Of a DNA stretch of 64,000 nucleotides, positions 10,055 to 61,860 are shown piece after piece. Both the position numbers and the translations under genes were made by a program. Source of the DNA: Candidatus Falkowbacteria bacterium (GTDB taxonomy: Bacteria; Patescibacteriota; Patescibacteriia; Patescibacteriales; Patescibacteriaceae). Within the stretch, counting starts at the first letter, position 1. Each line of letters starts with the position of its first letter. The notes beneath the pieces are model-generated. The model did no database searches, was not told the origin of the DNA, and saw nothing but the letters and a program-made list of their open reading frames with translations. The stretch covers positions 18,212 through 82,211 of the forward strand of contig CAIUCZ010000030.1 of NCBI GenBank assembly GCA_903897785.1, given 5' to 3'.

Positions 10055-10175
10055 TTAATGCGAAAAATGCGAATTGGCATGCGAATACCACGAATTGAAA
10101 CCGCAAAAAATGCGAATTCGAATTCGCGGCTTTCGCTATGCAATTTGCGGTATTCGCATTAATTCGTGGATTCGC
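10055..10175. mobile_element. B-family CGAAT-word element (MITE/REP-like), forward copy
   Basis: ttaatgcgaaaaatgcgaatt ... gaattcgaattc (centre 10118-10129) ... ggtattcgcattaattcgtgg. Near-identical to 61023-61155. Confidence 0.8.
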
Positions 10176-14007: not shown

Positions 14008-14730
14008 ATGCCTCTCATTGAACTCAAAAATCTGGACAAAGAATACCGCAATGACGAAGTGGTCACCAAGGTGTTGTTTGATATTACTTTTTCCATTGGC
14101 AAAGGCGAGTTTGTCTCGATCATGGGTCCGTCCGGTTCGGGCAAATCAACCTTGATGCACATTTTGGGCTTTTTGGATCGCGCCACCGGCGGCAGTTATC
14201 ATTTTGAAGGCAAAAAAGTGGCCATGCTGTCCGATGACGAGCTGGCGCGCTTGCGCAATGAACAAATCGGTTTTGTCTTTCAAGCCTTTAATCTCTTGCC
14301 GCGCACCAGCGTCTTGGACAACGTCGCTTTACCTTTGACTTATGTGCGCAAATTGGAATGGCCGAGCATCAATGCCCGCGCCGAGCAAGTTCTGACCAGC
14401 GTTGGCCTGGGGCATCGTTTAAATTATTTTACTAATCAAATCTCCGGCGGCGAAAAACAGCGGGTGGCGATTGCCCGCGCTTTAGTCAATAATCCGGCGG
14501 TGATTTTTGCCGACGAGCCGACCGGCAACTTGGATTCGGTGTCCGGTGTCCAGGTGATGGAGATTTTACAAAAACTAAACGACGAAGGCCACACGATTAT
14601 TTTAGTGACGCATGAAACGTTTACTTCTGAATATGCCAAGCGCATTATTCATGTCAGAGACGGCCGAATTATCAGCGATGAGCCGGTCAAGCATCGAAGA
14701 GTGGCGAAGGATGGGCAAAAGTTGAAGTAG
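14008..14730 (+). CDS. MacB/LolD-type ABC transporter ATP-binding protein
   Basis: GPSGSGKST (Walker A), ISGGEKQRVAIARAL (signature), IFADEPTGNLD (Walker B), VTHE (H-loop). Confidence 0.93.
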   Translation: MPLIELKNLDKEYRNDEVVTKVLFDITFSIGKGEFVSIMGPSGSGKSTLMHILGFLDRATGGSYHFEGKKVAMLSDDELARLRNEQIGFVFQAFNLLPRTSVLDNVALPLTYVRKLEWPSINARAEQVLTSVGLGHRLNYFTNQISGGEKQRVAIARALVNNPAVIFADEPTGNLDSVSGVQVMEILQKLNDEGHTIILVTHETFTSEYAKRIIHVRDGRIISDEPVKHRRVAKDGQKLK

Positions 14731-14795
14731 AATCTGGAATTTAGAATTTGGAATTCGTATTTTCCAGATTCCAGATTCCAGATTCTAAATTCCAT
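14731..14795. repeat. C-family word hairpin (CTGGAAT / ATTCCAG)
   Basis: 14736-14754 pairs with 14775-14793 over 19 bp with one T:G position. It fills the whole ATPase-permease gap. Confidence 0.85.
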
Positions 14796-17363: not shown

Positions 17364-17437
17364 GTTAAAAGTTGAAAGTTATAAAGTTCATAAAGTCAAA
17401 ATTCACTTTATGGACTTTTAACTTTATGAACTTTATA
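17364..17437. repeat. D-family word hairpin (ATAAAGTT / AACTTTAT)
   Basis: gttaaaagttgaaagttataaagttcataaagt / actttatggacttttaactttatgaactttata. Confidence 0.85.
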
Positions 17438-20552: not shown

Positions 20553-20644
20553 TTAATTAACGCACGAAACTACGAATTTTATGCGAATACCGCAAATTAC
20601 ATAGCGAAAGCCACGAATTCGAATTCGCATTTTTCGCATTAATG
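20553..20644. mobile_element. B-family element, reverse-oriented partial copy
   Basis: tacgaattttatgcgaataccgcaaattacatagcgaaagccacgaattcgaattcgcatttttcgcattaatg. This is the reverse complement of the right half of 10055-10175 plus a short terminal arm. Confidence 0.8.
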
Positions 20645-22946: not shown

Positions 22947-22980
22947 ACCCCCAAAGCTACGGCGATGGGGGTCTTTTTAT
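22947..22980 (+). terminator. intrinsic terminator
   Basis: accccc aaagctacggcgat gggggt followed by cttttta. Confidence 0.65.
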
Positions 22981-22981
22981 T

Positions 22982-23156
22982 CTACAAATACAAATTATTA
23001 TCACCGCTTGTCGCGGGATTCCGCCCTCAATTAACAATATAAGTGGCGGAACAAATTTACAAATATCGTTCTCGCAGGTTTTATTTGTAAATTTGCCTGT
23101 CCGCCGTAGCTTTAGCGAAGTTCGAGCGGAGGCGGATGATAATTTGTATTTGTAGG
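22982..23156. repeat. E-family arms enclosing a mosaic of other hairpins
   Basis: ctacaaatacaaattatta (22982-23000) ... taataatttgtatttgtag (23138-23156). The interior holds ggattccgcc/ggcggaac, acaaatttacaaata/tatttgtaaatttg, and ccgccgtagctttagcgaag..cggaggcgg. Confidence 0.8.
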
Positions 23157-25272: not shown

Positions 25273-25354
25273 GTTCTTAAAGTTTATAAAGTTACAAAGT
25301 TCATAAAGTGTCGCGCTTTATAACTTTAAGAATTTTATATCTTTTAACTTTAAC
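25273..25354. repeat. D-family word hairpin
   Basis: gttcttaaagtttataaagttacaaagttcataaagtg / ctttataactttaagaa...cttttaactttaac. Confidence 0.8.
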
Positions 25355-26421: not shown

Positions 26422-26482
26422 CTTAAGTTATAAAGTTCATAAAGTTGAAAGTTCTTAAAGTGATAATTTTTTCAACTTTTAA
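26422..26482. repeat. D-family word hairpin
   Basis: cttaagttataaagttcataaagttgaaagttcttaaagtg ... ttcaacttttaac. Confidence 0.75.
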
Positions 26483-28191: not shown

Positions 28192-28355
28192 CGCGCAAAA
28201 CTACGAATTATACGCGAATACCGCAAATTACATAGCGAAAAATGCGAATGAAACGCCGAAGGTCTAATCCTTAACAAACAATATTAGAGAATTCGCATTT
28301 TTTGCGGTTTCAATCCGTGGTATTTGCATGTTAATTCGCATTTTTTGCATTAATT
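28192..28355. mobile_element. B-family element, reverse orientation, with 40-nt central insert
   Basis: Reverse complement of the 10055/61023 element. It is interrupted exactly at the central GAATTC|GAATTC by gaaacgccgaaggtctaatccttaacaaacaatattagag (28250-28289). Confidence 0.8.
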
Positions 28356-28365
28356 AATTATTTTT

Positions 28366-29850
28366 ATGTCAGAACCAGAAAAAGTTCGCCTCAGATTAGC
28401 TCCCAGCCCCACCGGCTTCTTGCACATCGGTAATTTACGCACCGCTTTGTTTGGTTATTTGTTGGCAAAGTCTATGCATGGTGAATTTATCTTGCGCATT
28501 GAAGACACGGATGAAAAAAGAGAAGTCGAGGGTGCGGTCGACAGTCTGCTTAATGTTTTAACTTGGCTGGGCATTAATTTTGACGAAGGCCCGCATCTGG
28601 GCGGGGATTACGGCCCTTATATACAAACCCGGCGCCTGGATATTTATCAAAAAGAAATCCAAACGCTACTCGACAACCGTAAAGCCTACCGTTGTTTTTG
28701 CACGCCGGAACGTTTGACCGAGATGCGCGAAGAACAACAAAAAAATAAACAAGCGCCGCGTTATGATCGCCATTGCCGCAATCTGTCTGAAGATGAAGCG
28801 CAAGCCAAAATTAAGGCCGGCGAAAGTTTTGTTATTCGCCAAGCCATGCCGCTCGATGGTGTGGTGGAGGTTTATGATGAATTACGCGGGGCTATCAAAT
28901 TTCAAGCCGAAGACCTGGATGATCATGTCTTGATTAAAGCCAACGGCGTGCCGACTTATCAATTTGCCAGCGTCGTCGATGACCATTTGATGGAAATTTC
29001 TCATGTCACGCGCGGCGAAGAATGGCTGCCGTCTTTTCCGAAGAATATTTTATTGTATCAAGCTTTTGGCTGGATACTGCCCAAATTTATTCATCTGCCG
29101 TTGATCCTTAATAAAACCGGGGGCAAGCTGTCAAAACGCCAAGGCGATGTGTTTGTCGAAGACTATAAAACTAAAGGCTATCTGTCGGAAGCTTTAATTA
29201 ATTTTTGTGCTTTTTTAGGCTGGCATGGTAAAACCGATCAGGAAATTTTTAGCCTGGAAGAATTGGAAAAAGAATTTTCAATCGCCGGCATGGGCGCCAG
29301 TCCGGCCGTGTTTGATTTGGAGAAACTAAATTATTTGAACGGTTATTATATTCGCCAAATGTCGCCAGAGAATTTAGTTGACTTGGTTAAGCCATACCTA
29401 ACAGAGGCTATTGCCACCGCACCTTTCAATATTAGTGATGAATATTTAACCAAGATTATCAGTCTTGAACAAGAACGGCTAAAAGTTTTAGGCGAAATCA
29501 CGCAGGCGACTGCTTATTTCTTTGTTGACCAGTCGGAATACGAAGCACAGCTCTTGGTCTGGAAAAAATCAGACGCTGAAAAAACAAAAACTAATTTGCA
29601 AACTTTAGCTGATTACCTGGCGGTTTATTCTGGTGATTGGACCAAAGAAAATTTAGAAAGCTCTATTAAGCAATTAATCGCCGATCAGGGCGGTCAAGTC
29701 GGCGATTATCTTTGGCCGATGCGTGTCGCTTTGACCGGCCGCCAGTTTTCACCCGGACCGTTTGAAGTGGCGGCTGTCTTGGGGAAAGAAATAACTTTAA
29801 AAAGAATTAAAGGTGCAATTAATATTTTGAATCTGGAATCTGGAAGCTAG
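28366..29850 (+). CDS. gltX: glutamate--tRNA ligase
   Basis: RLAPSPTGFLHIGNLRTAL (HIGH) and KLSKRQG (KMSKS). The last residues NLESGS are encoded by the C-family repeat. Confidence 0.95.
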   Translation: MSEPEKVRLRLAPSPTGFLHIGNLRTALFGYLLAKSMHGEFILRIEDTDEKREVEGAVDSLLNVLTWLGINFDEGPHLGGDYGPYIQTRRLDIYQKEIQTLLDNRKAYRCFCTPERLTEMREEQQKNKQAPRYDRHCRNLSEDEAQAKIKAGESFVIRQAMPLDGVVEVYDELRGAIKFQAEDLDDHVLIKANGVPTYQFASVVDDHLMEISHVTRGEEWLPSFPKNILLYQAFGWILPKFIHLPLILNKTGGKLSKRQGDVFVEDYKTKGYLSEALINFCAFLGWHGKTDQEIFSLEELEKEFSIAGMGASPAVFDLEKLNYLNGYYIRQMSPENLVDLVKPYLTEAIATAPFNISDEYLTKIISLEQERLKVLGEITQATAYFFVDQSEYEAQLLVWKKSDAEKTKTNLQTLADYLAVYSGDWTKENLESSIKQLIADQGGQVGDYLWPMRVALTGRQFSPGPFEVAAVLGKEITLKRIKGAINILNLESGS

Positions 29851-29912
29851 AAGCTGGAATAATTTAAATTTTTTTCTTTCATTCCAGCTTCCAGATTCTA
29901 GCTTCTAGCTTC
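29829..29912. repeat. C-family word hairpin
   Basis: atctggaatctggaagctagaagctggaat / attccagcttccagattctagcttctagcttc. The left arm contains the gltX stop codon. Confidence 0.85.
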
Positions 29913-29933: not shown

Positions 29934-31181
29934 ATGCTTTTCCGCCATCGTTCTATAATTTTTATCAGCATTGTCTTAGCCAGTCTCGGCTATGGCGCTT
30001 TTTTAGTTTTTGGCCAAACCGCCCCCGCCGCATCCGCGCCGCCGACGCTGGATGATCTGTCCGGCAGTCCGGCGATTAAAGCTTTAAACGCGCAAATTGA
30101 GCAGAAAAAAAACAGTTTAAACGCACTGTCCGCCAAACAAGCCTTGTATCAGCAGGCGATTAACGGCCTAACGCGGCAAGAAGCCAGCTTGGCCAATCAA
30201 GTGGCGATGATTGACAATCAATTGTCCGGCCTGCAATTAAATTTAGATAAACTGCAGCTGCAAATCGGTCAAAATAATCTGGAAATCCAAAAAGCCAATT
30301 TGGAAATTCAAACCAAACAAGAACAAATTGCCAAAGTCAAAGAGCAGTTATCTTTATCGATTGAGCTACTGTCGCAAGAAGATAATAAAAGCCAGCTGGA
30401 AATCCTGCTGACCAATAACAATTTGGCCGATTTTGTCGATCAAGTGAAATATTTAAAAGACATCAACGGCAGCCTGCTGGACAGTGTTAATCGATTGCAG
30501 ACTTTGCAGGATCAATTGGCGCAAAAAAATCAGGATTTGCGCAAACAACAAGCGGCTATGCTGGTCTTACAGCAACAATTAAACGACGAACAAGCCGCTT
30601 ACAACGATGCCCGCGACGGCAAGACCGCTTTGCTGGCCCAGACACAATCGTCGGAAACAAAATACAGCGCCCTGTTAAATGAAGCGCGTAAAGAGCAAAT
30701 TGCCGCCGAAAACAATATTTTTTCTTTGGAAAAAACTTATCAAAGCAAAGTCAGCACCAAAGCGGGGGAGGCGACAGTGCTGGCTTGGCCGGTGCCAAAA
30801 AACACCATTACTGCGTATTTTCACGATCCGAGTTATCCTTTTCGTTATTTGTTTGAACACCCGGCTATTGATATTCGCGCCGCTCAAGCCTCACCGGTGC
30901 ATGCCGCCGCCGGCGGTTACGTCGCCGCCGCTCATGACGGGGGAATGGGCTATAGTTACATCATGATTATTCATGGCAACGGCCTGGCGACAGTCTACGG
31001 CCATATTTCCAGAATCGAGGTTAAAGCCGACCAATATGTCGCCGCCGGGCAAGAAATCGGCCTCTCCGGCGCCAAACCGGGTACTCCCGGCGCCGGACCG
31101 TTCACCACCGGCCCGCATTTGCATTTTGAGGTGCGGTTAAACGGCATTCCGGTCGACCCGTTGAATTATCTGCCGCAGTAG
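29934..31181 (+). CDS. M23 family metallopeptidase with N-terminal coiled coil (EnvC-like)
   Basis: About 230 aa of Q/L-rich coiled coil, then HPAIDI ... GHISRI ... GPHLHFEV. ATG at 29934 preferred. Confidence 0.85.
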   Translation: MLFRHRSIIFISIVLASLGYGAFLVFGQTAPAASAPPTLDDLSGSPAIKALNAQIEQKKNSLNALSAKQALYQQAINGLTRQEASLANQVAMIDNQLSGLQLNLDKLQLQIGQNNLEIQKANLEIQTKQEQIAKVKEQLSLSIELLSQEDNKSQLEILLTNNNLADFVDQVKYLKDINGSLLDSVNRLQTLQDQLAQKNQDLRKQQAAMLVLQQQLNDEQAAYNDARDGKTALLAQTQSSETKYSALLNEARKEQIAAENNIFSLEKTYQSKVSTKAGEATVLAWPVPKNTITAYFHDPSYPFRYLFEHPAIDIRAAQASPVHAAAGGYVAAAHDGGMGYSYIMIIHGNGLATVYGHISRIEVKADQYVAAGQEIGLSGAKPGTPGAGPFTTGPHLHFEVRLNGIPVDPLNYLPQ

Positions 31182-31709
31182 ACAAGACAAAGAACAAAAA
31201 GAGGAGACTGCCCAAGCGCGGATCACTTTTGATTTTGTTTATTATCGCTTGCAAACAAGCTGTAAATATAGTGTCGCACAATATAACTTATGCGACACAT
31301 ACTTAAATAAGTAAGCAGTCGATGCGTGGCATTGGTTGGTAGAAATTTTTAAATTAAATTCTACCCCCTACCAACGACAAACTATCTTATTACCAATCCG
31401 ATAAAATTTATTTGCGGATAAAATAATAATAAAATTTTTAGAATCAGCAAAAAGATGCCGATGACAGTCAGGCAAAAAACCAAGACTGCCACAAAAAAGA
31501 ATGCTTTAAAGGCTGTTTCCATAGATTAGCTAGTGGGTTGTAGTTTGGCGCTCGTAGTCGAACATCCACTACTCCCCGTTTAAACTTAAATTTCAATGTG
31601 TCGTAAAATATAGCTGGTAGCTTTTTAGTTAATTGGCTTATTAGGCGAGCACAAATTATTTTTGTTCTCCTGATGAGCTGATCCGCCATCTGGCAGAGCT
31701 ACCGCCTTG

Positions 31710-32732
31710 CTACCTAATGAAAGCTTTATCCCCAAAGCGCAGATCAATATATTGCTTCTTGGTCAGCTGATCACGCAGATTCTGTTGTGACACGGCTTTC
31801 AGTTTCAAAAGTTGTCCGGCCAGGCTATTCTGCGGATTAAACAACAGCAGGGGGCCGCCATCAATCTGGGCGTTAACCGTATTCAATTGGTTGTCAATAA
31901 AATATTGTTTAATTTTTAAATTTATCTGTCCGGGCAAAGCTTGTCCCAGTTCGGTCATAAAAACTATATCGCCCGGAGGCAGCGAAGCCGCCGAGCCGTT
32001 AATCTTATTGAGGCCCTGGTTGGCCACCAGCGGCAAGCCGGCGGGCGCTTGGTCGGTAATGTTAATCACCTCCCCTGCCAGGTCCAAACAGTAATAATGG
32101 CCGGCTTCCAGCCACACCAAGATGCACGGTTTTTCTTGCACGATAATGTTTAGCGTGTGCCAAAGACTTTTTCTGACAGTTATTTTATTAACATTAAAGC
32201 TGGTTGACAGCCGCTTAATCATCTGCCCGGCATCAAAACCAAACAGCGTCCTTTGAGGGATAATCAGCCAGCGGTTATTTTTGCTTTGATTCCAAGCGGC
32301 AACACTAATATCTTGGGCTGATAAATACTTGGTACCGTCAATTTTTATGTCATTAATCGTCAACAAGCCGGAATAGAACAAGCCCCAACCGACAGCCCCG
32401 AACAGAATCAAAACCAAAACAGTATAGAAAATAATTTTACGGCGCAACGGATGTTGATCAACTGCCTGACTGCCTTCCCAATGACGAGCTGATTTTTCGC
32501 CTGCCCGCGCGCCGCCGGCATAGCCTCTGGCGACGTTCGGCCGCAGAGGCGGGTCGGCAAATATTTTATTTTCTCGCGGCAAATGAACTTGTCCGCGCGT
32601 TGTCGGCTGACCGGCGTTAAACAAAATCGTCGAACGCGGCTTAAAAGAATTAGCCCCGGATTTAGGCGACTTTTTCCACCAATGAGATTTAGGTGCGGTT
32701 GATTTTTTTTGAACAAGAAATTCGTTGGCCAT
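31710..32732 (-). CDS. ftsQ: FtsQ/DivIB-like cell division protein (POTRA)
   Basis: Basic cytoplasmic tail, one TM helix, INDIKIDGTKYLSAQDI (POTRA start), and C-terminal IDLRFGDKAFI. Confidence 0.7.
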   Translation of the reverse strand: MANEFLVQKKSTAPKSHWWKKSPKSGANSFKPRSTILFNAGQPTTRGQVHLPRENKIFADPPLRPNVARGYAGGARAGEKSARHWEGSQAVDQHPLRRKIIFYTVLVLILFGAVGWGLFYSGLLTINDIKIDGTKYLSAQDISVAAWNQSKNNRWLIIPQRTLFGFDAGQMIKRLSTSFNVNKITVRKSLWHTLNIIVQEKPCILVWLEAGHYYCLDLAGEVINITDQAPAGLPLVANQGLNKINGSAASLPPGDIVFMTELGQALPGQINLKIKQYFIDNQLNTVNAQIDGGPLLLFNPQNSLAGQLLKLKAVSQQNLRDQLTKKQYIDLRFGDKAFIR

Positions 32733-32800: not shown

Positions 32801-34123
32801 TTACTTTATATTTTTTTGTTTGTTTAAGTAGGAGCGTAAAACTTCCGGAATTACAATTGACCCGTCAGCTTGCTGATAATTTTCTAAAATTGCAATCAGC
32901 GCGCGGGTGGTCGCGACACCGGTGCCGTTCAACGTATAGACATAGCGCCTCTCCCCTGCTTGCTTGTCATCGCCCGCGGTTTGATACTTGATGTTCAGGC
33001 CGCGCGCTTGATAATCAGTGCAGTTGGAAGTGGAAGTAATTTCTCTCCAGGCTCCTTTTTTATTGTCTAAGCTGGTTTCGCCAGCCGTAGCTTTAGCGGA
33101 GGCTGGTAACCAAGCTTCCAAATCAAACGTGCGATAAGACGGATTGCCCAGATCAGCCGTGCAATGATCGACAATACGAAAAGGAATGGCCAGGCCGCTA
33201 AAAATTTCCTTTTCAATCTCTAAAATTTCTTGATGCAAGCTTTCGGCGTCCTCCGGCTGGCAATAAACAAACATTTCCGCTTTGGTAAACTGATGGACGC
33301 GAAAAATGCCTTTGGCAAACTTGGAGTAGCTGCCGGCTTCGGTGCGAAAACAGTGCGACAAACCGACTAATTTAATCGGCAGATCGTCTAAAGACAACAC
33401 TTCGTCGGCATACAATCCGCCCAAAGTGATTTCGGCCGTGCCGATCAAAGACAAATCAGAATCTTCAATATTGTAAACCTGGGTTGAAGCGCCGCGCGGC
33501 GAAAATCCCAGTCGCTCAATTAAATCGGTTTTGGCCAAATCAGGCGTGGTCATAAAAGTGTAGCCGTGCGCCCGGATGATATCCAAAACATAATTAACCA
33601 AAGCCAGCTCCAGCCGGGCTAAATCATTTTTCAAATAATAGAACTTGGCGCCCGTAACTTTGGTTGCCCGTTCAAATTCAATCAAGTCCAAATCCGCCGC
33701 CAGCTGGACATGATCTTTGGGCTCAAACCCGCCTCCTCGGCTGGCAAGCTTAAAATTCGGAATCTCACCGATTGTTTCCAAAACCGGATTATCATCTTCG
33801 TCGGCGCTGACTTTGACGTCCGGATGAGTTAAGTTTGGCACAGCCAACAGCAAAGTCTGCAGATTTTTTTCCGTCATCACCAAAGTCTGCTCCAGTCCCT
33901 CGACCTTCTGGCCCAGCTGCTTCAGCTTGGCGATTTGCTCCTCGTCCGGCTTAGTTTTTGACGACTGATTGCGCTCGGCGCGCAGCTGATCAATTTGATT
34001 AATTAGTTCGCGGCGCTCAGTGTCCAATTTTAACAACTCATCAACATCAACCGCGGCCATGCGATCAGCGCAATTTTTTTTGATTAAATCTTGATTTTCG
34101 CGAATAAATTTAAGATCTAGCAT
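32801..34123 (-). CDS. serS: serine--tRNA ligase
   Basis: N-terminal coiled-coil arm; class II motifs FRTEAGS, REITSTSNCTDYQARG and TLNGTGVATTRALIAILENYQ. Confidence 0.95.
   Translation of the reverse strand: MLDLKFIRENQDLIKKNCADRMAAVDVDELLKLDTERRELINQIDQLRAERNQSSKTKPDEEQIAKLKQLGQKVEGLEQTLVMTEKNLQTLLLAVPNLTHPDVKVSADEDDNPVLETIGEIPNFKLASRGGGFEPKDHVQLAADLDLIEFERATKVTGAKFYYLKNDLARLELALVNYVLDIIRAHGYTFMTTPDLAKTDLIERLGFSPRGASTQVYNIEDSDLSLIGTAEITLGGLYADEVLSLDDLPIKLVGLSHCFRTEAGSYSKFAKGIFRVHQFTKAEMFVYCQPEDAESLHQEILEIEKEIFSGLAIPFRIVDHCTADLGNPSYRTFDLEAWLPASAKATAGETSLDNKKGAWREITSTSNCTDYQARGLNIKYQTAGDDKQAGERRYVYTLNGTGVATTRALIAILENYQQADGSIVIPEVLRSYLNKQKNIK
33058..33105. repeat. repeat-derived palindromic segment in frame inside serS
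   Basis: ggtttcgccagccgtagctttagcggaggctggtaacc encodes ASAKATAGET. The 13-mer gctttagcggagg (33090-33102) recurs at 47180-47192. Confidence 0.7.
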
Positions 34124-34131
34124 AGGTTTTA

Positions 34132-34268
34132 ATTTGCGATAAATTTAATACGAATGTTACGAATTGTATCCGAATACTACGAATTGATTACGAATGTCGT
34201 GAATTTTATATTCGCATTTTTCGCGGTGCCATTCGCAGTATTCGCATACAATTCGTAGATTCGCATTA
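34132..34268. mobile_element. B-family-like CGAAT-word hairpin, degenerate copy
   Basis: aatacgaatgttacgaattgtatccgaatactacgaattgattacgaatg / attcgcatttttcgcggtgccattcgcagtattcgcatacaattcgtagattcgcatt. Confidence 0.7.
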
Positions 34269-34690: not shown

Positions 34691-34773
34691 GTTAAAAGTT
34701 CATAAAGTTATAAAGTTATAAAGTCATGGATTCGTAGAACTTTCAACTTTATAACTTTATGAACTTTATAAAC
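34691..34773. repeat. D-family word hairpin
   Basis: gttaaaagttcataaagttataaagttataaagt / actttcaactttataactttatgaactttataaac. Confidence 0.85.
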
Positions 34774-37453: not shown

Positions 37454-37454
37454 A

Positions 37455-37538
37455 GTTCATAAAGTTATAAAGTTATAAAGTTATAAAGCGCGAAACTTTA
37501 TGAACTTTACGAACTTTATAACTTTCAACTTTATAAAC
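37455..37538. repeat. D-family word hairpin
   Basis: gttcataaagttataaagttataaagttataaagcg / cgaaactttatgaactttacgaactttataactttcaactttataaac. Confidence 0.85.
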
Positions 37539-38230: not shown

Positions 38231-38268
38231 AGATTGGAATCTGGAATTTAGATTTTAGATCTGAAAAT
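38231..38268. repeat. C-family word segment
   Basis: agattggaatctggaatttagattttagatctgaaaatt. Confidence 0.6.
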
Positions 38269-40916: not shown

Positions 40917-40949
40917 TCGCCTCTTCGGCGACCCGCCGATGAGGCGGGG
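40917..40949. repeat. J-family small hairpins (CCGCCGATGAGGCGG)
   Basis: gtcgcctcttcggcgac + ccgccgatgaggcgg. Related copies at 49387-49429 and 59210-59228. Confidence 0.65.
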
Positions 40950-41013
40950 TGAGTAGATGGCAAGCTTAAGTGCTTATTAAAACTGGCTTTAGCTTAGCAA
41001 ATTATCGTTATTT

Positions 41014-42895: not shown

Positions 42896-45355
42896 TCAGC
42901 AACTATTCACATATAGCGGATCAATCAACCCGATCAGCCGGCTGGGCGTCATTGGCCGACCAAAGCCGTCAAACTGGCTATAAGACAGGTATACACCTGC
43001 TCGCGCCCGGGTCAAAGCGACATAAAACAAGCGTAGCTCTTCTTCAAAATCAGCTTTATACATCGGGAAATGAAATTCGTTCAGCTTGACCAAAAAAACA
43101 TAATCAAACTCCAAGCCCTTGGCGGCATGCACCGTAATAATCGGCACCTTCCCCTGCTCCAGTCCCAAGAAGTCTAAATTTTTAACCAGACTGGCGTAAT
43201 TAATTAATTCTTGCAAAGCGACGTTGCTCGGTTTTTGAGGATCGTCTTTTTGCGCGAATAACTGGGCCAGCGCGTCAAAAGATTTTAGTCGTTTGTTAGA
43301 GTCCGGCTCTTTGGCATAATATTCCCGCAAACCGGAATCATCCAAAATTTTATTCAAGGCTTCGGCTGGCCGGACTTTGGTAATTAGTGCTTGCCAGTCC
43401 TCAATCATTTTTGCCAAAACGACAAATTTTTTGGAAAATTCTTGAAACAATTCGCGCCGTTTGCTTGTTCCGGTTCGGGCCAAATTAATCAGGTACTCAA
43501 GCAAGCCGACCGTCGCCGCTACGTCGTCATCGGCGCTATGGGTGGCACTGGCCAGATTTAAATTTTTGGCCAAGGTTGACAGGCGATAATTTTCCGATTG
43601 CACAAACCGTTTGGCCAAATCCAAGGTGTCATAATAATCCGCGGCTTGAAAATTTAGGCCATAGCGCGCGCTGTTGTTGGTAATCATCGTCAAATCAAAA
43701 TTAACATTATGGCCGACGACAATCGCTTGGCCGACAAAATTTTTGAGCTTGCCTAAAATTTCTTTGGGCTCGTGGCCGTTTTCGCGTAAAAATTGATCGG
43801 ACAGTTTGTGCACTTGCTCGGACGTGCCGACCGGCTTTTGATTTTTAATATAATAATGAAATTCCTCGCCCGCCCGGCCGTTGATTAATTCCACGGCATA
43901 AATCTGAATAATTTCATCCGTCTGAAAATTTACACCGGTGGTCTCCGTGTCCAAAACGACAATTCGACCATGAGCAAAGGCGTCGAGCAAGGGGGCGAAC
44001 GGTTCAGTCAGCTGATAATTTTTAAAGCTCAACAAATCGGAGACTTTCAGACCGACCGGGTTGCCCTCGGCGCGAATCTTGTTTAAAGTCGCCTGTCCAA
44101 TAGCGCGTGCTGGGCGCTCCACCAAACGATAAGCCGCGTCTAGGTCAAATTTATTAAAAATAATTTTTAAATAAGCATAAATGTCTTTGACCTCTTGGCG
44201 CCGAAAAAAATTATATTGGTCAACCGTGATGTGGGCGATATTTTCTTTGGCAAAAATTTCCGCCAGATCGCTAATCGGCTGATTGGCTCGAGCCAGTACC
44301 GCAATCGTCGCCTTGGGTTCACGCGCGCGCAAGTCTTTGATTTGTGAGACCACCGAAGTCGCCTCTTCGGCAAAGTTGTAGCCGGCAAACAACTGCACGC
44401 ATTTTTCCGGTCCCTCGGCCGCACTGGCGCCGGTTAGTTCTTTGGTATTTTGTTGTTTGAAATTTTGCAAAACAGATTTGATAGCCGCCAATAGCTGCGG
44501 ATTGAACCGATAATTAATGCTCAAATTTAATTTTGTCACCGGCGCAAAATGCGTTTTGAATAACTCGGCAATATATTTTGGTTTACTGCCGCGCCAGCCA
44601 TAAATCGTCTGGTCCAGATCGCCGATCAAAGCTAAATTTTTATGCACGCGCGCCAATTGTTTAACCACCAAATATTCGGACAAATGCGTGTCTTGAAATT
44701 CATCCAGCTGAATAAATTTAAACCGGCGCGACCATTTGTTTTTTAACTCATCGTCTAAATAAAGTGCGCGCAAAGTCAGATAAACCAGTTGATTAAAATC
44801 CACGGCGTTTTGCTGCAATAGAACTTGCTCATATTTCTGGCCGAGCTCCACCAGCTGCGCCGGCAAATTAACCGGCTCCACCTGGTAGCCAATGGCAATT
44901 TCCAGCTGCGTTATTTTGTAACGATAAAGCCGTTCCAGTAAATCTAAAATCGCCCGCTTTTCTCGAGCAATCGGCGCACGCGGGTAATCGGCTAAAAGAT
45001 TATTCATGACGGCCGCCTGCTCATCTTCGTCCATAATGACAAAATCTGCGGTCAGCCCGAGAGCTTTGCTTTCGGCTTTTAAAAAATAGGCACAAAAACC
45101 GTGAAAAGTGTTAATCACCACCTCGCCCGACTGGCTAACGTCCGCTAAACACTGGCGTAAGCGCGTTTTCATTTCTTCGGCCGCTTTGTTGGTAAAGGTC
45201 AGGCACAAAATCTCAGCCGGCGCAACCCCCGCTTTTATGGCTGAAATCACGCGCTGGGCCAGGACAGTCGTCTTGCCCGTGCCGACCGGCGCGGAGATTA
45301 AATACGCGCCAAAAACACTGTCGATTATTTTTTGTTGTTGTTCGTTGAAGTTCAT
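42896..45355 (-). CDS. UvrD/PcrA/Rep-type SF1 helicase with embedded DEDDh 3'-5' exonuclease domain
   Basis: Helicase motifs APVGTGKT, LDEFQDT, IYGWRG, VHAAKGLEFDYVFL and YVALTRAR. Exonuclease motifs VLDTETTG, GHNVNFD and HSADDDV lie at about aa 464-625 (43481-43966). Start set to the ATG at 45355. Confidence 0.88.
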   Translation of the reverse strand: MNFNEQQQKIIDSVFGAYLISAPVGTGKTTVLAQRVISAIKAGVAPAEILCLTFTNKAAEEMKTRLRQCLADVSQSGEVVINTFHGFCAYFLKAESKALGLTADFVIMDEDEQAAVMNNLLADYPRAPIAREKRAILDLLERLYRYKITQLEIAIGYQVEPVNLPAQLVELGQKYEQVLLQQNAVDFNQLVYLTLRALYLDDELKNKWSRRFKFIQLDEFQDTHLSEYLVVKQLARVHKNLALIGDLDQTIYGWRGSKPKYIAELFKTHFAPVTKLNLSINYRFNPQLLAAIKSVLQNFKQQNTKELTGASAAEGPEKCVQLFAGYNFAEEATSVVSQIKDLRAREPKATIAVLARANQPISDLAEIFAKENIAHITVDQYNFFRRQEVKDIYAYLKIIFNKFDLDAAYRLVERPARAIGQATLNKIRAEGNPVGLKVSDLLSFKNYQLTEPFAPLLDAFAHGRIVVLDTETTGVNFQTDEIIQIYAVELINGRAGEEFHYYIKNQKPVGTSEQVHKLSDQFLRENGHEPKEILGKLKNFVGQAIVVGHNVNFDLTMITNNSARYGLNFQAADYYDTLDLAKRFVQSENYRLSTLAKNLNLASATHSADDDVAATVGLLEYLINLARTGTSKRRELFQEFSKKFVVLAKMIEDWQALITKVRPAEALNKILDDSGLREYYAKEPDSNKRLKSFDALAQLFAQKDDPQKPSNVALQELINYASLVKNLDFLGLEQGKVPIITVHAAKGLEFDYVFLVKLNEFHFPMYKADFEEELRLFYVALTRARAGVYLSYSQFDGFGRPMTPSRLIGLIDPLYVNSC

Positions 45356-45382
45356 ATACTTATAATAAACCCTTCCTATTTG

Positions 45383-45461
45383 GTCATCCCGGCGTATGCC
45401 GGGATCCAGTTTCATCTGCTTCGTTCGTGAATTTCTGGATACTGGCATACGCCGGTATGAC
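45383..45461. repeat. A-family hairpin repeat
   Basis: gtcatcccggcgtatgccgggatccag / ctggatactggcatacgccggtatgac. Confidence 0.85.
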
Positions 45462-47098: not shown

Positions 47099-47172
47099 GG
47101 CTGCGAAGTTTAAACCAACGTTTACATTTATTATTCTGTTGCGCTTTTTACACCTTTACCACCGGCTTTGCT

Positions 47173-47949
47173 CTACGAAGCTTTAGCGGAGGAGAGCCCG
47201 TTGATCGAATCCATTTTGACCGTGTTCAGCACCTCCTGCACAGTCGTCATCAACTGCGCCGGGAAAATAATGGTGGAATTTTTCTCCACACTAATCTCGG
47301 ACAAAGTCTGCAAAGTGCGCAGCTGCAAAGCAATCGGATGATTCATAATAATATCCGCCGCTTGGCCAAGCTTGACCGCCGCCTGGAACTCGCCCTCGGC
47401 CGCCACAATCTTGGCCCGGCGTTCACGCTCGGCTTCGGCTTCTTTGGCCATGGCCCGCTGCATATTATCCGGTAAAGTAATATCCTTGATTTCCACAGCT
47501 GTTACCTGCGCGCCCCACGGTTCGGTGTGGGTATCAATCACGTTTTTTATTTTTTCATTAATCTCCGAGGTCTGCGACAACAACTGATCCAGCTGGAATT
47601 GACCGACAACATTACGCACTGTCGTCTGGCTGATTTGGTTGACCGCGTCATAAACATTTTCAATCCCGACCACAGATTTTTGCGGATCGACAATGTGGTA
47701 ATAAGCCACGGCGGCAATGTCGATCGAAACATTGTCTTTGGTAATAATTTTTTGCGACGGGATGTTCATGGTAACGGTGCGCAAAGTAGCCCGGCTCATC
47801 TGTTCAAAAATCGGAATCAAAAAAATCAAGCCCGGTCCGCGCACACCCGTGCAACGCCCGAGGAAAAAGATGACTCCCCGCTCGTATTCTTTGAGCACGC
47901 GCAAAGAATAGAAAAACAGAATCACGACTACCGCTAGAAAGTACCACAT
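47173..47949 (-). CDS. SPFH/Band 7 (stomatin-like) protein
   Basis: N-terminal TM helix, [12 protein letters not shown], and coiled [12 protein letters not shown]. The last residues SSAKAS are encoded by a repeat word. Confidence 0.9.
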
Positions 47950-49194: not shown

Positions 49195-49386
49195 TTTAAA
49201 AATCCTTTCTTACAAAGAACAACAAATCTGCTATTTTTATGGTAACAAAAAGGTTTATTTTTAGCAAATTTCCAGGCAAAATCGTGCCATTGACAAGATT
49301 ATAAATTTCTGCTATCCTTAGAGCTAAGTAAATTAATTTAGAAAAATCGTCGAGCTTCACAAATTTTTTTCTTTGCCTCGCCATAG

Positions 49387-49429
49387 CTCCATCGGAGCGA
49401 AGGCGGGCTTCGTCCGCCGATGAGGCGGA
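49387..49429. repeat. J-family small hairpins in the csp 5' leader region
   Basis: ctccatcggag, cgaaggcgggcttcg, tccgccgatgaggcgga. Confidence 0.6.
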
Positions 49430-51102: not shown

Positions 51103-51939
51103 TTAATTATTACTTAACTCGTCCGCCGAAGAGGCGGAATCTGCTTTTTTCTTTCTGGTTCTCTTAGGTTTTTCAACTTCCGCTTCGCTTGTCGTTTCAT
51201 CAACCGGAACTTCCACAACGGCCGGCGCTTCCACCGTCAAACCCTCTTCGGCCAAAGCGACCACGGCATTAAACTGTTCCACCAAAATTTTGGCGGAGGC
51301 GGCAAAAGCGGCCTGCGGTTCAATCGTGCCGTCGGTGGTGATGGACAAAACCAATTTGTCCCAATCGGTCATTTTACCGACGCGGGTATTTTCCACGTTC
51401 AAAGCGACATTCAAAATCGGAGAGAATATGGAATCAATTTCAATATAACCGATTTCGCTGGCTTTGTTCTCGCGATTTTCCACCTGTTCATAGCCGAGGC
51501 CCCGCGAGACAAAAATTTCCATTTCTAATTTACCGGCCATGTCGGTGATATTGGCCAAAACCAAATCAGGATTAACCACCTGCACTTCGGCATTTTTCTT
51601 AATATCGCCGGCTTTGATTTGCTTTTCACCATGAACTTCTAATTCCAAGCGAACCACCGGCTCTTCGGAAAAATATTTAAAACGCAATTGCTTCAAATTC
51701 AAAATCATCTGCAAAATATCTTCTTTGACATGCGGGATGGCCATAAATTCATGATCCACGCCGGCGATTTTGACACCGATCACCGCCGAACCGGGCAAAC
51801 TGGCCAACAACACGCGGCGCAAGGAATTGCCCAAAGTCGCGCCATAGCCGGGATTTAACGGCTCAACGATAATATCAGCTTGGTTGGGCGTTGCACCCGG
51901 AACCACTTCAATTTTCTTTGGTAAAGCAATACTTTGCAT
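51103..51939 (-). CDS. rpoA: DNA-directed RNA polymerase alpha subunit, N-terminal domain only
   Basis: GYGATLGNSLRRVLLASLPG and the NTD through ILVEQFNAVVAL. The remaining 48 aa are low-complexity (EVEKPKRTRKKKADSASSADE). No alpha-CTD-like HhH motif. Confidence 0.9.
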   Translation of the reverse strand: MQSIALPKKIEVVPGATPNQADIIVEPLNPGYGATLGNSLRRVLLASLPGSAVIGVKIAGVDHEFMAIPHVKEDILQMILNLKQLRFKYFSEEPVVRLELEVHGEKQIKAGDIKKNAEVQVVNPDLVLANITDMAGKLEMEIFVSRGLGYEQVENRENKASEIGYIEIDSIFSPILNVALNVENTRVGKMTDWDKLVLSITTDGTIEPQAAFAASAKILVEQFNAVVALAEEGLTVEAPAVVEVPVDETTSEAEVEKPKRTRKKKADSASSADELSNN

Positions 51940-51944
51940 AAAAT

Positions 51945-52077
51945 TTTGGAATCTGGAAGCTGGAATCTGGAATCTGGAGCCTGCCTGCCGGCAGGCGGGT
52001 TTTAATTCTCCAAATTCTAAATTCCAAATTCCAAATTCTTGTTTGTATATTTGTAATAATTTGTATTTGTAGTAATT
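51945..52077. repeat. C-family word hairpin (51945-52039) plus E-family single arm (52040-52077)
   Basis: tggaatctggaagctggaatctggaatctggag cctgcctgccggcaggcggg ...ctccaaattctaaattccaaattccaaattc, then tgtttgtatatttgtaataatttgtatttgtagtaat. Confidence 0.85.
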
Positions 52078-53270: not shown

Positions 53271-53343
53271 ATTCGGAATTTGGAATTTGGAATTTAGAAT
53301 TTGGATTTTATCTCCAGATTCCAGATTCCAGATTCTAAATTCT
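53271..53343. repeat. C-family word hairpin
   Basis: attcggaatttggaatttggaatttagaatttggat / atctccagattccagattccagattctaaattc. Confidence 0.85.
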
Positions 53344-53804: not shown

Positions 53805-53830
53805 ACTAGTTAAAAATTAAAAGTTATAAA

Positions 53831-53895
53831 GTCGTTAGTCATTAGTCGTTAGTCAAGAATAAAAAATTAAAGACTAACAACTAACGACTAACGAC
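53831..53895. repeat. F-family word hairpin (AGTCGTTAG / CTAACGACT)
   Basis: gtcgttagtcattagtcgttagtc / gactaacaactaacgactaacgac; about 21 of 24 positions pair. Confidence 0.85.
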
Positions 53896-53899
53896 TATT

Positions 53900-54013
53900 T
53901 TATCCTTGTCTCTGTTTATGTTTTGGATTTTTACAAATAACACACACCCGGCCTTTGCGGCGGATAGTCTCACAATCTTTACAAATTTTTTTCACTGAAG
54001 CTCTGACTTTCAT
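53900..54013 (-). CDS. rpmJ: 50S ribosomal protein L36 (37 aa, below the ORF-track cutoff)
   Basis: Hand translation: [37 protein letters not shown]. Confidence 0.93.
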
Positions 54014-54021
54014 AATAAATA

Positions 54022-54085
54022 AGTCGTTAGTCGTTAGTCACAAGTCGTCAGTCAATTTTGACTTCCGGCTAACGACTTGCGACTT
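54022..54085. repeat. F-family word hairpin (imperfect)
   Basis: agtcgttagtcgttagtcacaagtcgtcagtc ... ggctaacgacttgcgactt. Confidence 0.7.
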
Positions 54086-54097
54086 ATAACTTTAAAT

Positions 54098-59111: not shown

Positions 59112-59209
59112 GGGTTTATTTTTAAAATTTATGACTATATCCTACCAAGTTTAAAGCTTTTGCGCAACTTGAAAAATCAACCAAAGCAATGTAGTATAAA
59201 AACTACCAA

Positions 59210-59228
59210 CCCCGCCTCATCGGCGGGC
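59210..59228. repeat. J-family small hairpin
   Basis: ccccgcctcatcggcgggc. Confidence 0.55.
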
Positions 59229-59254
59229 AAGCTACCATCCTACCCGCCTAGCCT

Positions 59255-60678: not shown

Positions 60679-60720
60679 TTAACTTTATAAACCTTAAAAA
60701 CTTTATAACTTTTAACTTAT
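60679..60720. repeat. D-family word segment, single orientation
   Basis: ttaactttataaaccttaaaaactttataacttttaacttat. Confidence 0.65.
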
Positions 60721-61022: not shown

Positions 61023-61155
61023 ATTAATGCAAAAAATGCGAATTAACATGCAAATACCACGAATGTAAACCGCAAAAAATGCGAATTCGAATTCGCGGTT
61101 TTCGTTATGTAATTTGCGGTATTCGCATGCAAATTCGCATTTTTCGCATTAATTA
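61023..61155. mobile_element. B-family element, forward copy, most complete
   Basis: attaatgcaaaaaatgcgaattaacatgcaaataccacgaatgtaaaccgcaaaaaatgcgaattcgaattcgcggttttcgttatgtaatttgcggtattcgcatgcaaattcgcatttttcgcattaat. Confidence 0.85.
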
Positions 61156-61162
61156 ATATTTT

Positions 61163-61756
61163 GTGTTTCCATCTCCAATCCAAAACTTAATCGACCAACT
61201 AACCCAACTCCCCTCTGTCGGCCCCAAGACTGCCGAGCGCTATGTCTTTTTTTTGTTGCGCCAAAAGCCGGAATTTTTATACGAGCTAACCAAAAGCATT
61301 GCTGAGCTGCCAAAAAGCATTGCCGAGTGCCAGCATTGCCACAATCTCGGTTTGGCCAATCCGTGTGCGATTTGCGCCGACAACCGGCGCGACGCTCGCC
61401 TGCTTTGCCTGGTGGCGCAACCGCAAGATATTGCCTATCTGGAAAACACTAAACAATATCTCGGGCTTTACTATGTCATCGGCGGTCCGCTTTCCCCAAC
61501 CGCCGGTTTGGGTCCGGAAGTTCTGGCCTTGAGTGGATTGCTGGCACGTCTGCAGACAAAACCGGTTGAGGAAATAATTTTAGCTTTCTCGCCCGACCTG
61601 CCCGGTGAAACCACGGCGCTGTACTTGATTAAAATTTTAAGTCAATTTAACGTCAAAATTAGTCGTTTGGCGCGCGGCCTGCCGAGTGGCGCCAGCTTGG
61701 AATACGCCGACGAAATGACACTGGGACAAGCGATCCAGAATAGAACAAGTTCATAA
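61163..61756 (+). CDS. recR: recombination protein RecR
   Basis: GTG start. LPSVGPKTAERYVFFLL (HhH), C4 zinc finger CQHCHN..CAICAD, and a Toprim domain. The stop codon lies in the D-family arm. Confidence 0.92.
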   Translation: MFPSPIQNLIDQLTQLPSVGPKTAERYVFFLLRQKPEFLYELTKSIAELPKSIAECQHCHNLGLANPCAICADNRRDARLLCLVAQPQDIAYLENTKQYLGLYYVIGGPLSPTAGLGPEVLALSGLLARLQTKPVEEIILAFSPDLPGETTALYLIKILSQFNVKISRLARGLPSGASLEYADEMTLGQAIQNRTSS

Positions 61757-61860
61757 AGTTATAAAGTTTATAAAGTTAAAAGTAAAAACGCCTCAAAAAT
61801 TGAGACGTTTTTTAGTAGCGACACTTTATGAACTTTATAACTTTAAAAACTTTTAACTTC
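61749..61860. repeat. D-family word hairpin spanning both convergent gene ends (recR and rplU)
   Basis: gttcataaagttataaagtttataaagttaaaagt ... actttatgaactttataactttaaaaacttttaactt, with an inner aaaacgcctca/tgagacgtttt hairpin. Confidence 0.85.

Follow-up and report, generated by a model that had tools for sequence, protein, structure and literature searches.

A 30-nt palindromic repeat within a Patescibacteria seryl-tRNA synthetase gene, and its relatives in other genes and phyla

The serS gene and the repeat copies of the window

The DNA analysed here (the window) is a 64,000-nt stretch of Candidatus Falkowbacteria bacterium contig CAIUCZ010000030.1 (positions 18,212 to 82,211), and our subject is a short palindromic segment within its serS gene, which encodes seryl-tRNA synthetase (SerRS). 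The gene was assigned from its open reading frame (ORF) and from homologues carrying PF02403 and PF00587; its product matches SerRS entries of the PDB (E 1e-91), and its closest homologues are from Candidatus Falkowbacteria and Patescibacteria sources. A sequence-only reading of the window had described the segment as a structured repeat that has colonised two unrelated coding regions, serS and an SPFH gene, and one intergenic region. The features concerned are as follows.

32801..34123, minus strand: serS (440 aa), the host gene
33077..33106, plus strand: 30-nt hairpin repeat copy within serS and antisense to it (covariance model 42.8 bits, E 1.2e-9)
33083..33103, plus strand: the 21 nt (AGC-core-GC) gained, net, in comparison with empty orthologues (from the codon table of filled and empty SerRS loops and a filled/empty DNA alignment)
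33074..33111, plus strand: extended imperfect palindrome of the serS copy (DNA and RNA folding)
23096..23136, plus strand: intergenic copy (sequence; model 36.7 bits)
47173..47949, minus strand: SPFH/Band-7 gene (258 aa) with a C-terminal tail and stop codon formed by the repeat
47167..47196, plus strand: copy that extends over the SPFH gene's 3' end (model 36.7 bits)

The plus strand at 33071-33108 reads GGTTTCGCCAGCC GTAGCTTTAGCGGA GGCTGGTAACC, with stems CCAGCC/GGCTGG and GGTT/AACC, and the palindrome is present in serS with the sequence and coordinates first reported. Both DNA folding (-9.7 kcal/mol, z -2.2) and RNA folding (-19.8 kcal/mol, z -2.7) predict a hairpin in which an outer stem (GGTT/AACC) and an inner one (CCAGCC/GGCTGG) lead, past a 3x3 internal loop (GTA/GGA), to a GC/GC mini-helix capped by a TTTA loop. 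An inverted-repeat search of 33030-33130 with a 6-nt seed returned nothing; folding recovered the arms, which have 6 and 4 bp and a bulge. The repeat copy itself reads TTCGCCAGC / CGTAGCTTTAGCGGAG / GCTGG, with its core at 33086-33101, and it corresponds exactly to residues P340-E349 (PASAKATAGE) of the protein segment ...DLEAWLPASAKATAGETSLDNKKGAWREITSTSN..., in frame and phase-exact with codons 340-349. The 21-nt net insert encodes residues 341-347 (ASAKATA), and the CCA (P340) and GGC GAA ACC (G348-E349-T350) on either side of it correspond to the Pro and Gly-Lys-Pro codons of the ancestral state. In three lake-water metagenome runs, independent Logan contigs span the element and agree there with the serS sequence to within 0-1 differences.

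Within the window the 13-mer GCTTTAGCGGAGG occurs exactly at 33090-33102 and 47180-47192 and nowhere else, as had been noticed from the sequence, although this recurrence alone is weak evidence; for the 13-mers of a 48-nt stretch taken together, an estimated ~0.07 recurrences are expected over 64 kb. Over-representation of the word was clearer for the 18-mer CCGTAGCTTTAGCGRAGG, which with up to 3 mismatches was found at three sites (23104, 33085 and 47175) against 0.09 expected, a count reached in none of 100 shuffles. Likewise, a covariance model run on the window gave 42.8, 36.7 and 36.7 bits at these three sites (E 1e-9 to 6e-8) and at most 14.9 bits everywhere else. All three full copies lie on the plus strand and fit one 30-nt consensus including its flanks, with paired arms that vary from copy to copy; the proposal of one structured repeat in two coding regions and one intergenic region is therefore supported.

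The intergenic near copy proved to be a full family member and reads CCTGTCCGC / CGTAGCTTTAGCGAAG / TTCGA GCGGAG / GCGGA, with its true pairing arm, GCGGA, at 23132-23136. Its 3' half (AGCGRAG plus arm) is duplicated, giving AGCGAAG-TTCG-AGCGGAG-GCGGA, and the same 3'-half duplication of the element occurs in other genomes (loci L023, L029, L067 and L097). The SPFH copy reads TTTGCTCTA / CGAAGCTTTAGCGGAG / GAGAG. Orthologues of this SPFH protein are conserved up to ...VKMDSIN and continue into unrelated tails of 1-9 aa; in the window protein the tail LSSAKAS (47176-47196) and the TAG stop codon (47173-47175, within the element arm) are element sequence, which bears out and slightly extends the first description of the protein as ending in repeat-encoded SSAKAS. 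The minus strand carries serS as well as the SPFH gene, and the word is therefore translated from its reverse complement in each of them (to SAKAT and SAKAS, respectively). The SPFH tail of homologue P0124 (...DSLSSLAS) was considered as a decayed copy and rejected, as its DNA bears no resemblance to the element.

Consensus, fold and spread of the repeat family

A scan of a species-representative genome collection (596 Gb) with the 16-mer CGTAGCTTTAGCGRAG returned at least 120 loci. Since ~2,200 chance matches were calculated for 596 Gb, the number of matches is uninformative and the flanks alone are usable. These were strongly non-random in 125 copies, with CTTGYCCKC at positions -9 to -1 and GMGGR at +16 to +20, giving the 30-nt family consensus CTTGYCCKC-CGTAGCTTTAGCGRAG-GMGGR, and composition was flat farther out. 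The flanks CTTGYCC...GGR were shared by the 125 genome-collection and 72 viral-contig matches listed to the 16-nt core.

The consensus folds by pairing of -5 to -1 with +16 to +20 and of C0 with G15 into a 6-bp stem, which a 3x3 internal loop (GTA/GRA) separates from a GC/GC mini-helix topped by the loop TTTA, and can do so on either strand as DNA or RNA. Two of the stem pairs each have two main forms (GC 55 / TA 36 and CG 50 / TA 37). In an ungapped alignment of 144 copies, 89.9% of stem cells were paired compared with 75% in shuffles, and 170 cells were changed on both sides compared with 65, a level reached in 0 of 500 shuffles; when the partner columns were slid by 1-3 positions, pairing fell to only 28-54%. 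The stem thus covaries. Counts of G-U and A-C pairs were balanced and so marked neither strand as transcribed, and no T-run follows the hairpin, composition being flat from +21 in the 125 copies. A model search of Patescibacteria loci also recovered variant cores, namely CGAAGC..., AGTTTTAAC and GCCTTGGC; in AGTTTTAAC both sides of the inner 2-bp helix have changed and the helix is retained, and the CGAAGC core variant of the SPFH copy recurs elsewhere.

Hosts among the matches listed span more than 10 bacterial phyla as well as viral contigs, all sharing the flanks and the covarying 6-bp stem, and include many Patescibacteria, Verrucomicrobiota, Planctomycetota, Kiritimatiellales, Lentisphaeria, Acidobacteriota, Bacteroidota, Alpha- and Gammaproteobacteria, Bdellovibrionota, Cloacimonadota, Elusimicrobia, TM6/Babeliaceae, Nitrospiraceae, Desulfobacterales and Spirochaetia. 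Isolates with complete genomes (Bdellovibrio bacteriovorus Bd16 and Maricaulis sp.) carry the family, as do assemblies of many studies. None of the 120 matches listed was from Firmicutes or Actinobacteria, and the single archaeal match (L024) has no arms and looks like chance. A 36-nt consensus run by BLAST against 5,426 E. coli genomes, 72,556 PLSDB plasmids and 50,697 cultured-phage records matched none of them. The family is pan-bacterial rather than specific to one genome, which extends the sequence-only reading. Other Patescibacteria loci held roughly one extra copy per 14 kb.

IMG/VR contained at least 72 distinct copies, 57 of which have at least 4 of 5 arm pairs, and the same 16-nt core is found in giant-virus metagenome-assembled genomes (MAGs) with AT-rich 9-bp arms (ATTATATTC / GAATATAAT). 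In six IMG/VR loci (L142, L149, L163, L165, L170 and L182; five of them giant-virus MAG contigs) the arms follow host genome composition and the core is constant. Separately, a Babeliaceae MAG carries a head-to-tail tandem array of 31-nt units (L042, 5457-5546), with at least 3 copies adjoining a run of N.

Of the 125 copies, approximately 31-43% are within long ORFs, and these are of both orientations (20 antisense and 19 sense); intergenic copies showed no context or orientation bias relative to their flanking genes (19/15/15/13) and no 3'-end preference. The lack of an orientation bias and of a T-run is evidence against action as a terminator or, in a strand-specific way, as RNA. Of the element's six reading frames four are open, and in AT-rich genomes Ala/Lys-rich frames predominate (S/FAKATxxK antisense, AVALAKAG sense). 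Pfam confirmed in-frame copies in ten genes:

SucB, E2 linker: Bdellovibrio
TGT: Azambacteria
HsdM: Roizmanbacteria
ValRS: Parcubacteria
DnaG: Yanofskybacteria
LigA: Moranbacteria
RlmN: Sedimentisphaerales
radical-SAM/SPASM protein: Phycisphaerae
peptidase M29: Woesebacteria
AlaRS: Kiritimatiellales

In addition, two close relatives of the window bear copies in further aminoacyl-tRNA synthetase genes: locus L001 has a second copy in frame in its glutamyl-tRNA synthetase (GluRS) gene (L001 6335-6374, encoding WH-PCSAKATQGK-PT), and locus L124 an in-frame tandem pair in an Asp/Asn-type synthetase gene (L124 513-552, encoding SFAKASTSAKATADK).

Searches for a previously described equivalent were negative. 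No Rfam family matched the window at gathering thresholds, and among eight element-bearing loci searched at E <=1 (L103 also at E <=10) no match overlapped the element; the one near-threshold match, to Acido-Lenti-1 in L103, is unrelated to the element and 2.3 kb away from it. Likewise, the DNA word and its encoded peptides led to no relevant paper in the searchable literature.

Alleles of the SerRS loop and the surrounding window

In an alignment of 120 homologues, Patescibacteria SerRS share a baseline loop, W-[ML]-P-GKPNKEGGxGD-W, which is 7-8 aa longer than that of solved structures. The window protein has 14 extra residues compared with the structures from P. horikoshii, A. aeolicus and K. 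pneumoniae, so that the sequence-only estimate of about 14 stands against these references, but compared with Patescibacteria SerRS the net insert is 7 aa (21 nt) and not ~42 nt. P340 is invariant in the alignment and retained in the window protein. An AlphaFold2 (AF2) model built with 40 sequences (mean predicted local distance difference test score (pLDDT) 85; predicted template modelling score 0.86) placed the insert in an unstructured loop, residues 340-357, between strands 331-339 and 358-369, the latter of which bears the conserved REITSTSN segment. Within the loop pLDDT was 55-66, falling below 50 at residues 346-348, with no secondary structure.

Inserts in this loop were found in several lineages:

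Window: ASAKATAGE
P0027 (L002): SFAKATEGE
L228: TYAKALVDK
P0109 (L003): TSAKAIAGK
P0002 (L001): SPAVALAEEG
P0003 (L124): SPAVMKVEEG
P0010 (L125): 16-aa composite of a related hairpin

Close relatives of filled proteins are empty, the pairs being P0027 and P0077 (94% aa identity), P0010 and P0007 (96%), and L228 and its nearest relative P0058 (76%), and the insert is therefore not a conserved feature of SerRS, nor is it conserved across unrelated phyla. The same position has thus been filled repeatedly and recently. Two further observations concern this loop: that of L125 holds a recent, clean insert of 48 nt, composed of a related hairpin (CTGTCCTG-AGCCCAGCCGAAG-GAGA) and a duplicate of its 5' half, and that of L218 a recent 21-nt GC-rich insert encoding MPARQQG.

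The codon table of the loop showed TGG-YTN-CCN-GGN-AAR-CCN in 26 of 26 empty Patescibacteria-type alleles, and in the window, L002 and L228 exactly 21 nt lie between CCN (Pro) and GGN-AAR, in the same orientation in each. Read on the opposite strand, Pro-Gly-Lys is YTTNCC·NGG, which equals the element flank at positions -9 to -4 and +18 to +20. Comparison of L002 with L128 showed 21 nt inserted without target duplication, and L125 differs from L129 with at most a 3-nt ACT repeat at the insertion. The GluRS gene provides a second example:

29224..29232, plus strand: empty target site in the window GluRS gene (CAT^GGT AAA), filled in the closest relative, L001 (WH-PCSAKATQ-GK)

Here the left junction is the same as in serS, with 24 nt inserted in L001 directly beside GGC AAG, and this filled/empty pair again has no target-site duplication. 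These shared junctions suggest either a target preference, 3' of YTTNCC, or copy-insertion guided by microhomology to the element ends, and the serS loop would be a recurrent target because its Pro-Gly-Lys codons mimic the element flanks. Insertion of the core into the loop of a pre-existing hairpin was also considered and rejected for coding copies, as empty SerRS and GluRS sites have no palindrome beyond CC/GG.

The closest relatives carry the element in the opposite orientation. In L001, whose SerRS is 85% identical to that of the window, TTCGCCCGCCGTAGCTTTAGCGGAGG lies on the sense strand of serS, whereas the window has TTCGCCAGCCGTAGCTTTAGCGGAGG on the antisense strand; the two blocks agree over 26 nt with 1 mismatch, both are in frame, and the shared block includes the former Gly-Lys codons (GGC GAA). 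In both L001 and L124 the G-K-P codons are missing from their usual place, and their reverse complement GCTTCGCC (from GGCGAAGC) stands at the far end of the block. Furthermore, inverting 35 nt of L001 in silico gave WLPAPSSAKATAGEADPDAKG, which is close to the window's WLPASAKATAGETSLDNKKGA and includes the shared derived GGC GAA, and the sense strand of empty loops has no CTTNCC^NGG-like site. Judged from these alignments, a 33-35-nt palindromic block was probably inverted in place in serS. The window and L001 do not differ by a flip of just the loop, a reading rejected because the asymmetric TTCGCC flank has also switched sides.

The opposite orientations would also be accounted for if the 30-nt element had entered this permissive loop independently more than once, and we regard this as possible though less favoured. 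The loop has been struck separately several times (L002, L228, L003 and L125), and the L124 protein (P0003) is closer to an empty SerRS (78% to P0007) than to the window/L001 pair (71%), so that a single ancestral event needs extra losses. The identical arms and flanks of L001 and L124 (TCGCCCGCCGTA...GGAGGAGGGG) at ~71% protein identity could also reflect one source subfamily inserted twice. Independent insertion does not, on the other hand, readily explain the displaced and reverse-complemented G-K-P codons, the near match of inverted L001 to the window, or the lack of a suitable site on the sense strand. As a side observation, the sense-oriented copies of L124 (2999-3038) and L001 (1118-1157) have arms and flanks identical at 22 of 22 nt and differ in their central 8 nt, ATGAAAGT in L124 for GCTTTAGC in L001.

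Besides its three full copies, the window contains two degenerate ones, making 3 full and 2 degenerate copies per 64 kb:

22950..22969, minus strand: truncated relic, CCCATCGC CGTAGCTTT GGG, missing the 3' half of the core (read from the sequence; below model significance)
49370..49414, plus strand: tentative, weakly supported diverged copy, CTTTGCCTCGCC ATAGCT[CCATCGGA]GCGAAG GCGGG (14.7 bits, E 0.09); a related hairpin, whose loop is GATGA, comes after it

The window belongs to the core chromosome, and Pfam identified a mraY-ftsW-murG-murC-murB cluster, mreB, gltX, ftsQ, an Asp/Asn-type aminoacyl-tRNA synthetase gene, greA, a uvrD-like helicase gene, a ribosomal-protein/rpoA block, alaS, dnaB and recR. 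Genes are almost all on the plus strand before a convergent junction at ~31181-31710 and almost all on the minus strand from ftsQ/serS onward. The UvrD-like helicase (42896-45448, minus strand; 850 aa) has an RNase_T-type exonuclease domain (497-649) within its UvrD_C match (308-825).

Other repeats were also observed. Four GC-rich hairpins, at 59204-59234 (minus), ~49399-49420 (plus), 40925-40955 (plus) and 51115-51145 (plus), share the element flank and arms (GCTTGCCCGCC...GGCGGG) around a 5-nt loop (GATGA in three, GAAGA in one), and are either a core-less sister family or deletion derivatives of the element. Intergenic mosaics of 8-nt tandem words (AAAGTTAT / AAAGTTCAT) form inverted arrays at 17375-17430, 25284-25330, 26425-26445, 34695-34770, 37454-37530, 53820-54090, 60699-60712 and 61747-61840, with 12-13-mers recurring 10-13 times per 64 kb. 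A second intergenic word family (GCAAAAAATGCGAATTCGAATTCG and its complement) recurs 8-10 times in inverted pairs (10060-10125, 20614-20630, 28235-28345, 34210-34224 and 61029-61140), and a third consists of tandem 7-mers, GAATCTG/GAATCTGGAATCTGG, at gene ends (14730-14780, 29829-29895, 38235-38247, 51947-51975 and 53313-53330). In other phyla the hairpin element is often embedded amid similar 7-8-nt tandem words (L071, L103, L106, L065 and L047).

Interpretation and comparison with known systems

We interpret the serS segment as a copy of a very short, non-autonomous, palindromic interspersed repeat, selfish-DNA-like in character, that is tolerated in an essential gene and has no dedicated function in SerRS, and give this a probability of roughly 0.75. 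New copies would arise by insertion, without target duplication, at sites resembling the joined flanks of the element (YTTNCC^NGG), and the antisense of the Pro-Gly-Lys codons of a surface β-hairpin loop in Patescibacteria SerRS would be such a site. A 21-nt payload may then have entered exactly between the Pro and Gly codons, adding ASAKATA in the Ala/Lys-rich frame. Its exposed position in a loop that already varies would be why the enzyme tolerates it, and selection would keep only copies in which the invariant Pro and the frame are intact. In the SPFH gene a copy would have landed on a variable C-terminal tail and now supply the stop codon, and in the sister lineage the whole palindromic block would later have been inverted in place. 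Candidate mobilising machinery includes template switching on the hairpin, or an HUH/Y1-type single-strand transposase acting in trans.

A bolder proposal is that the element represents a class of ultra-small mobile DNA, with a 21-nt payload, site-specific at YTTNCC^NGG, inserting without duplication, completing its hairpin from target flanks and able to flip, which spread over more than 10 phyla and viruses by widely shared putative machinery and writes AKAT/VALAK heptapeptides into essential proteins. We put this forward tentatively and think it doubtful in so full a form.

Several points weigh against the reading of the segment as a tolerated mobile repeat. Conservation of the 14-nt hairpin interior across phyla more usually suggests the binding site of a factor, although its invariance is in part built into the collection scans, which required the exact core, and the absence of an orientation bias does not prove the absence of function. 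The target-site evidence comes from five events in two genes, where some coincidence is possible as Lys codons are common in these loops, and the L003 insertion is 30 nt with only the flank CTT pre-existing. No transposase domain was detected by Pfam among the 50 main ORFs of the window, and copy number per genome is an extrapolation from the window (3-5 copies) and 8-kb slices. Finally, no inversion joints were seen in low-depth contigs of four runs, orientation polymorphism being beyond the reach of such contigs.

A competing explanation, which we consider unlikely, is that the hairpin is a functional cis-element (a binding site, processing signal, mRNA 3'-end stabiliser, terminator or DNA site) kept by selection. 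Purine-rich internal loops are found in many structured RNA motifs, and that of the element (GUA/GAA) is purine-rich. A 14-nt interior (GTAGCTTTAGCGRA) that is constant while the stem covaries, across phyla and including the giant-virus MAGs with AT-rich arms, is the pattern of a recognised loop. The AGTTTTAAC variant keeps its inner helix by a two-sided change, and the SPFH copy stands exactly at a gene 3' end. Against this, copies show neither an orientation bias to neighbouring genes nor a 3'-end preference, no T-run is present, flanks are random beyond +20, and the balanced G-U and A-C stem counts mark no strand as transcribed. Furthermore, the two closest serS relatives carry the element in opposite orientations, so that their mRNA hairpins differ, other close relatives do without it, and it belongs to no Rfam family.

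A selected, lineage-specific SerRS insertion in the loop before motif 3, with the DNA resemblance incidental, is very improbable and has been largely refuted. The loop is indeed already expanded in all Patescibacteria SerRS compared with solved structures, and its length varies in P0020, P0049, P0082, P0099, P0110 and P0114. Nucleotide-level identity nevertheless reaches unrelated genes and intergenic DNA, the sister lineage reads the other strand and so encodes an unrelated peptide (SPAVALAEEG compared with ASAKATAGE), orthologues 94-96% identical to filled alleles are empty, and in the AF2 model the insert is of low confidence and forms no secondary structure. Chance or an assembly or sequencing artefact is refuted: the 13-mer recurrence by itself is only marginally unexpected, but the model E-values, the lake-water contigs, the phase-exact in-frame position and the presence of the family in complete isolate genomes and assemblies of many studies all speak against it.

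If the tolerated-repeat reading is correct, one 30-nt hairpin family explains many short Ala/Lys- or Arg/Ser-rich peptides in the predicted proteins of uncultivated bacteria (...SFAKATxxK..., ...AVALAKAG... and ...RRSFSEGG...), as well as indels in essential Patescibacteria enzymes, and would affect annotation, alignment-based phylogeny and MAG quality control. The SerRS loop, with its natural filled, empty and putatively inverted alleles, makes the mechanism testable.

IS608, of the IS200/IS605 family with its 'peel and paste' transposition, inserts 3' of TTAC, and REP/RAYT systems (repetitive extragenic palindromes and their associated tyrosine transposases) are relatives of that family. The element is similar in its apparent insertion immediately 3' of a short specific sequence, its lack of target-site duplication and its putative dependence on a DNA hairpin, but it is a single 30-nt hairpin rather than two distinct hairpin ends, and neither it nor the window contains a transposase gene; the resemblance might concern a possible mode of action and not membership. 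A Rho-independent terminator differs in having a T-run, whereas copies of the element lack one and lie in both orientations and inside genes. Likewise, idiosyncratic insertion domains of aminoacyl-tRNA synthetases differ from the insert described here, which is absent from 94-96%-identical orthologues and has the same DNA in intergenic regions and other genes.

REPs are the closest in size. GTAG/CGTC REPs have been reported inside genes, including those for tRNA synthetases, DNA ligase and DnaE, and REP families are shared across species (Di Nocera et al. 2013, PMC3733652). REPs and REPINs are, like the element, 20-40-nt imperfect palindromes with ~6-9-bp stems that show complementary changes, and are found singly, in dimers and in clusters (PMC3733652; Nunvar et al. 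2010, PMC2817692). The unpaired terminal GTAG/CGTC tag is absent from the element, whose unpaired 5' tag is CTTG (-9 to -6) and which has GTAG only inside the hairpin interior. Furthermore, REP loops are mostly 2-5 nt compared with the conserved, structured 14-nt interior described here, and REPs are mostly extragenic and downstream of genes, whereas about one third of element copies are coding and show no orientation bias. No RAYT is known for the element and none is present among the 50 main ORFs of the window, and the element DNA and peptide strings are absent from the text and supplements of PMC3733652.

Rickettsia palindromic elements (RPEs) are the precedent for in-frame insertion, being palindromic repeats found in frame in unrelated Rickettsia housekeeping genes (Ogata et al. 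2000 Science, as summarised in PMC10969869). Both they and the element are palindromic and interspersed, add a short peptide at fold-compatible positions of housekeeping proteins and are also intergenic. RPE-1-type repeats are ~100-150 bp, with families RPE-1 to RPE-10 restricted to Rickettsia, compared with 30 nt (21-nt payload) and more than 10 phyla plus viral contigs here; the conserved hairpin interior with a covarying stem is a further difference, and the two share no sequence similarity. MITEs, or miniature inverted-repeat transposable elements, are similarly small, non-autonomous, structured, dispersed and able to form in-frame fusions (PMC10969869), but the element is far shorter, lacks the terminal inverted repeats of a known insertion sequence and made no target-site duplication in the filled/empty pairs examined. 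In-frame palindromic repeats are thus already known, and no described REP, RPE or MITE family combines the features of this element; its extremely small size, conserved interior with covarying stem, cross-phylum and viral spread, and repeated same-position insertion without duplication form an unusual combination that points to a novel insertion mechanism and mobilising factor.

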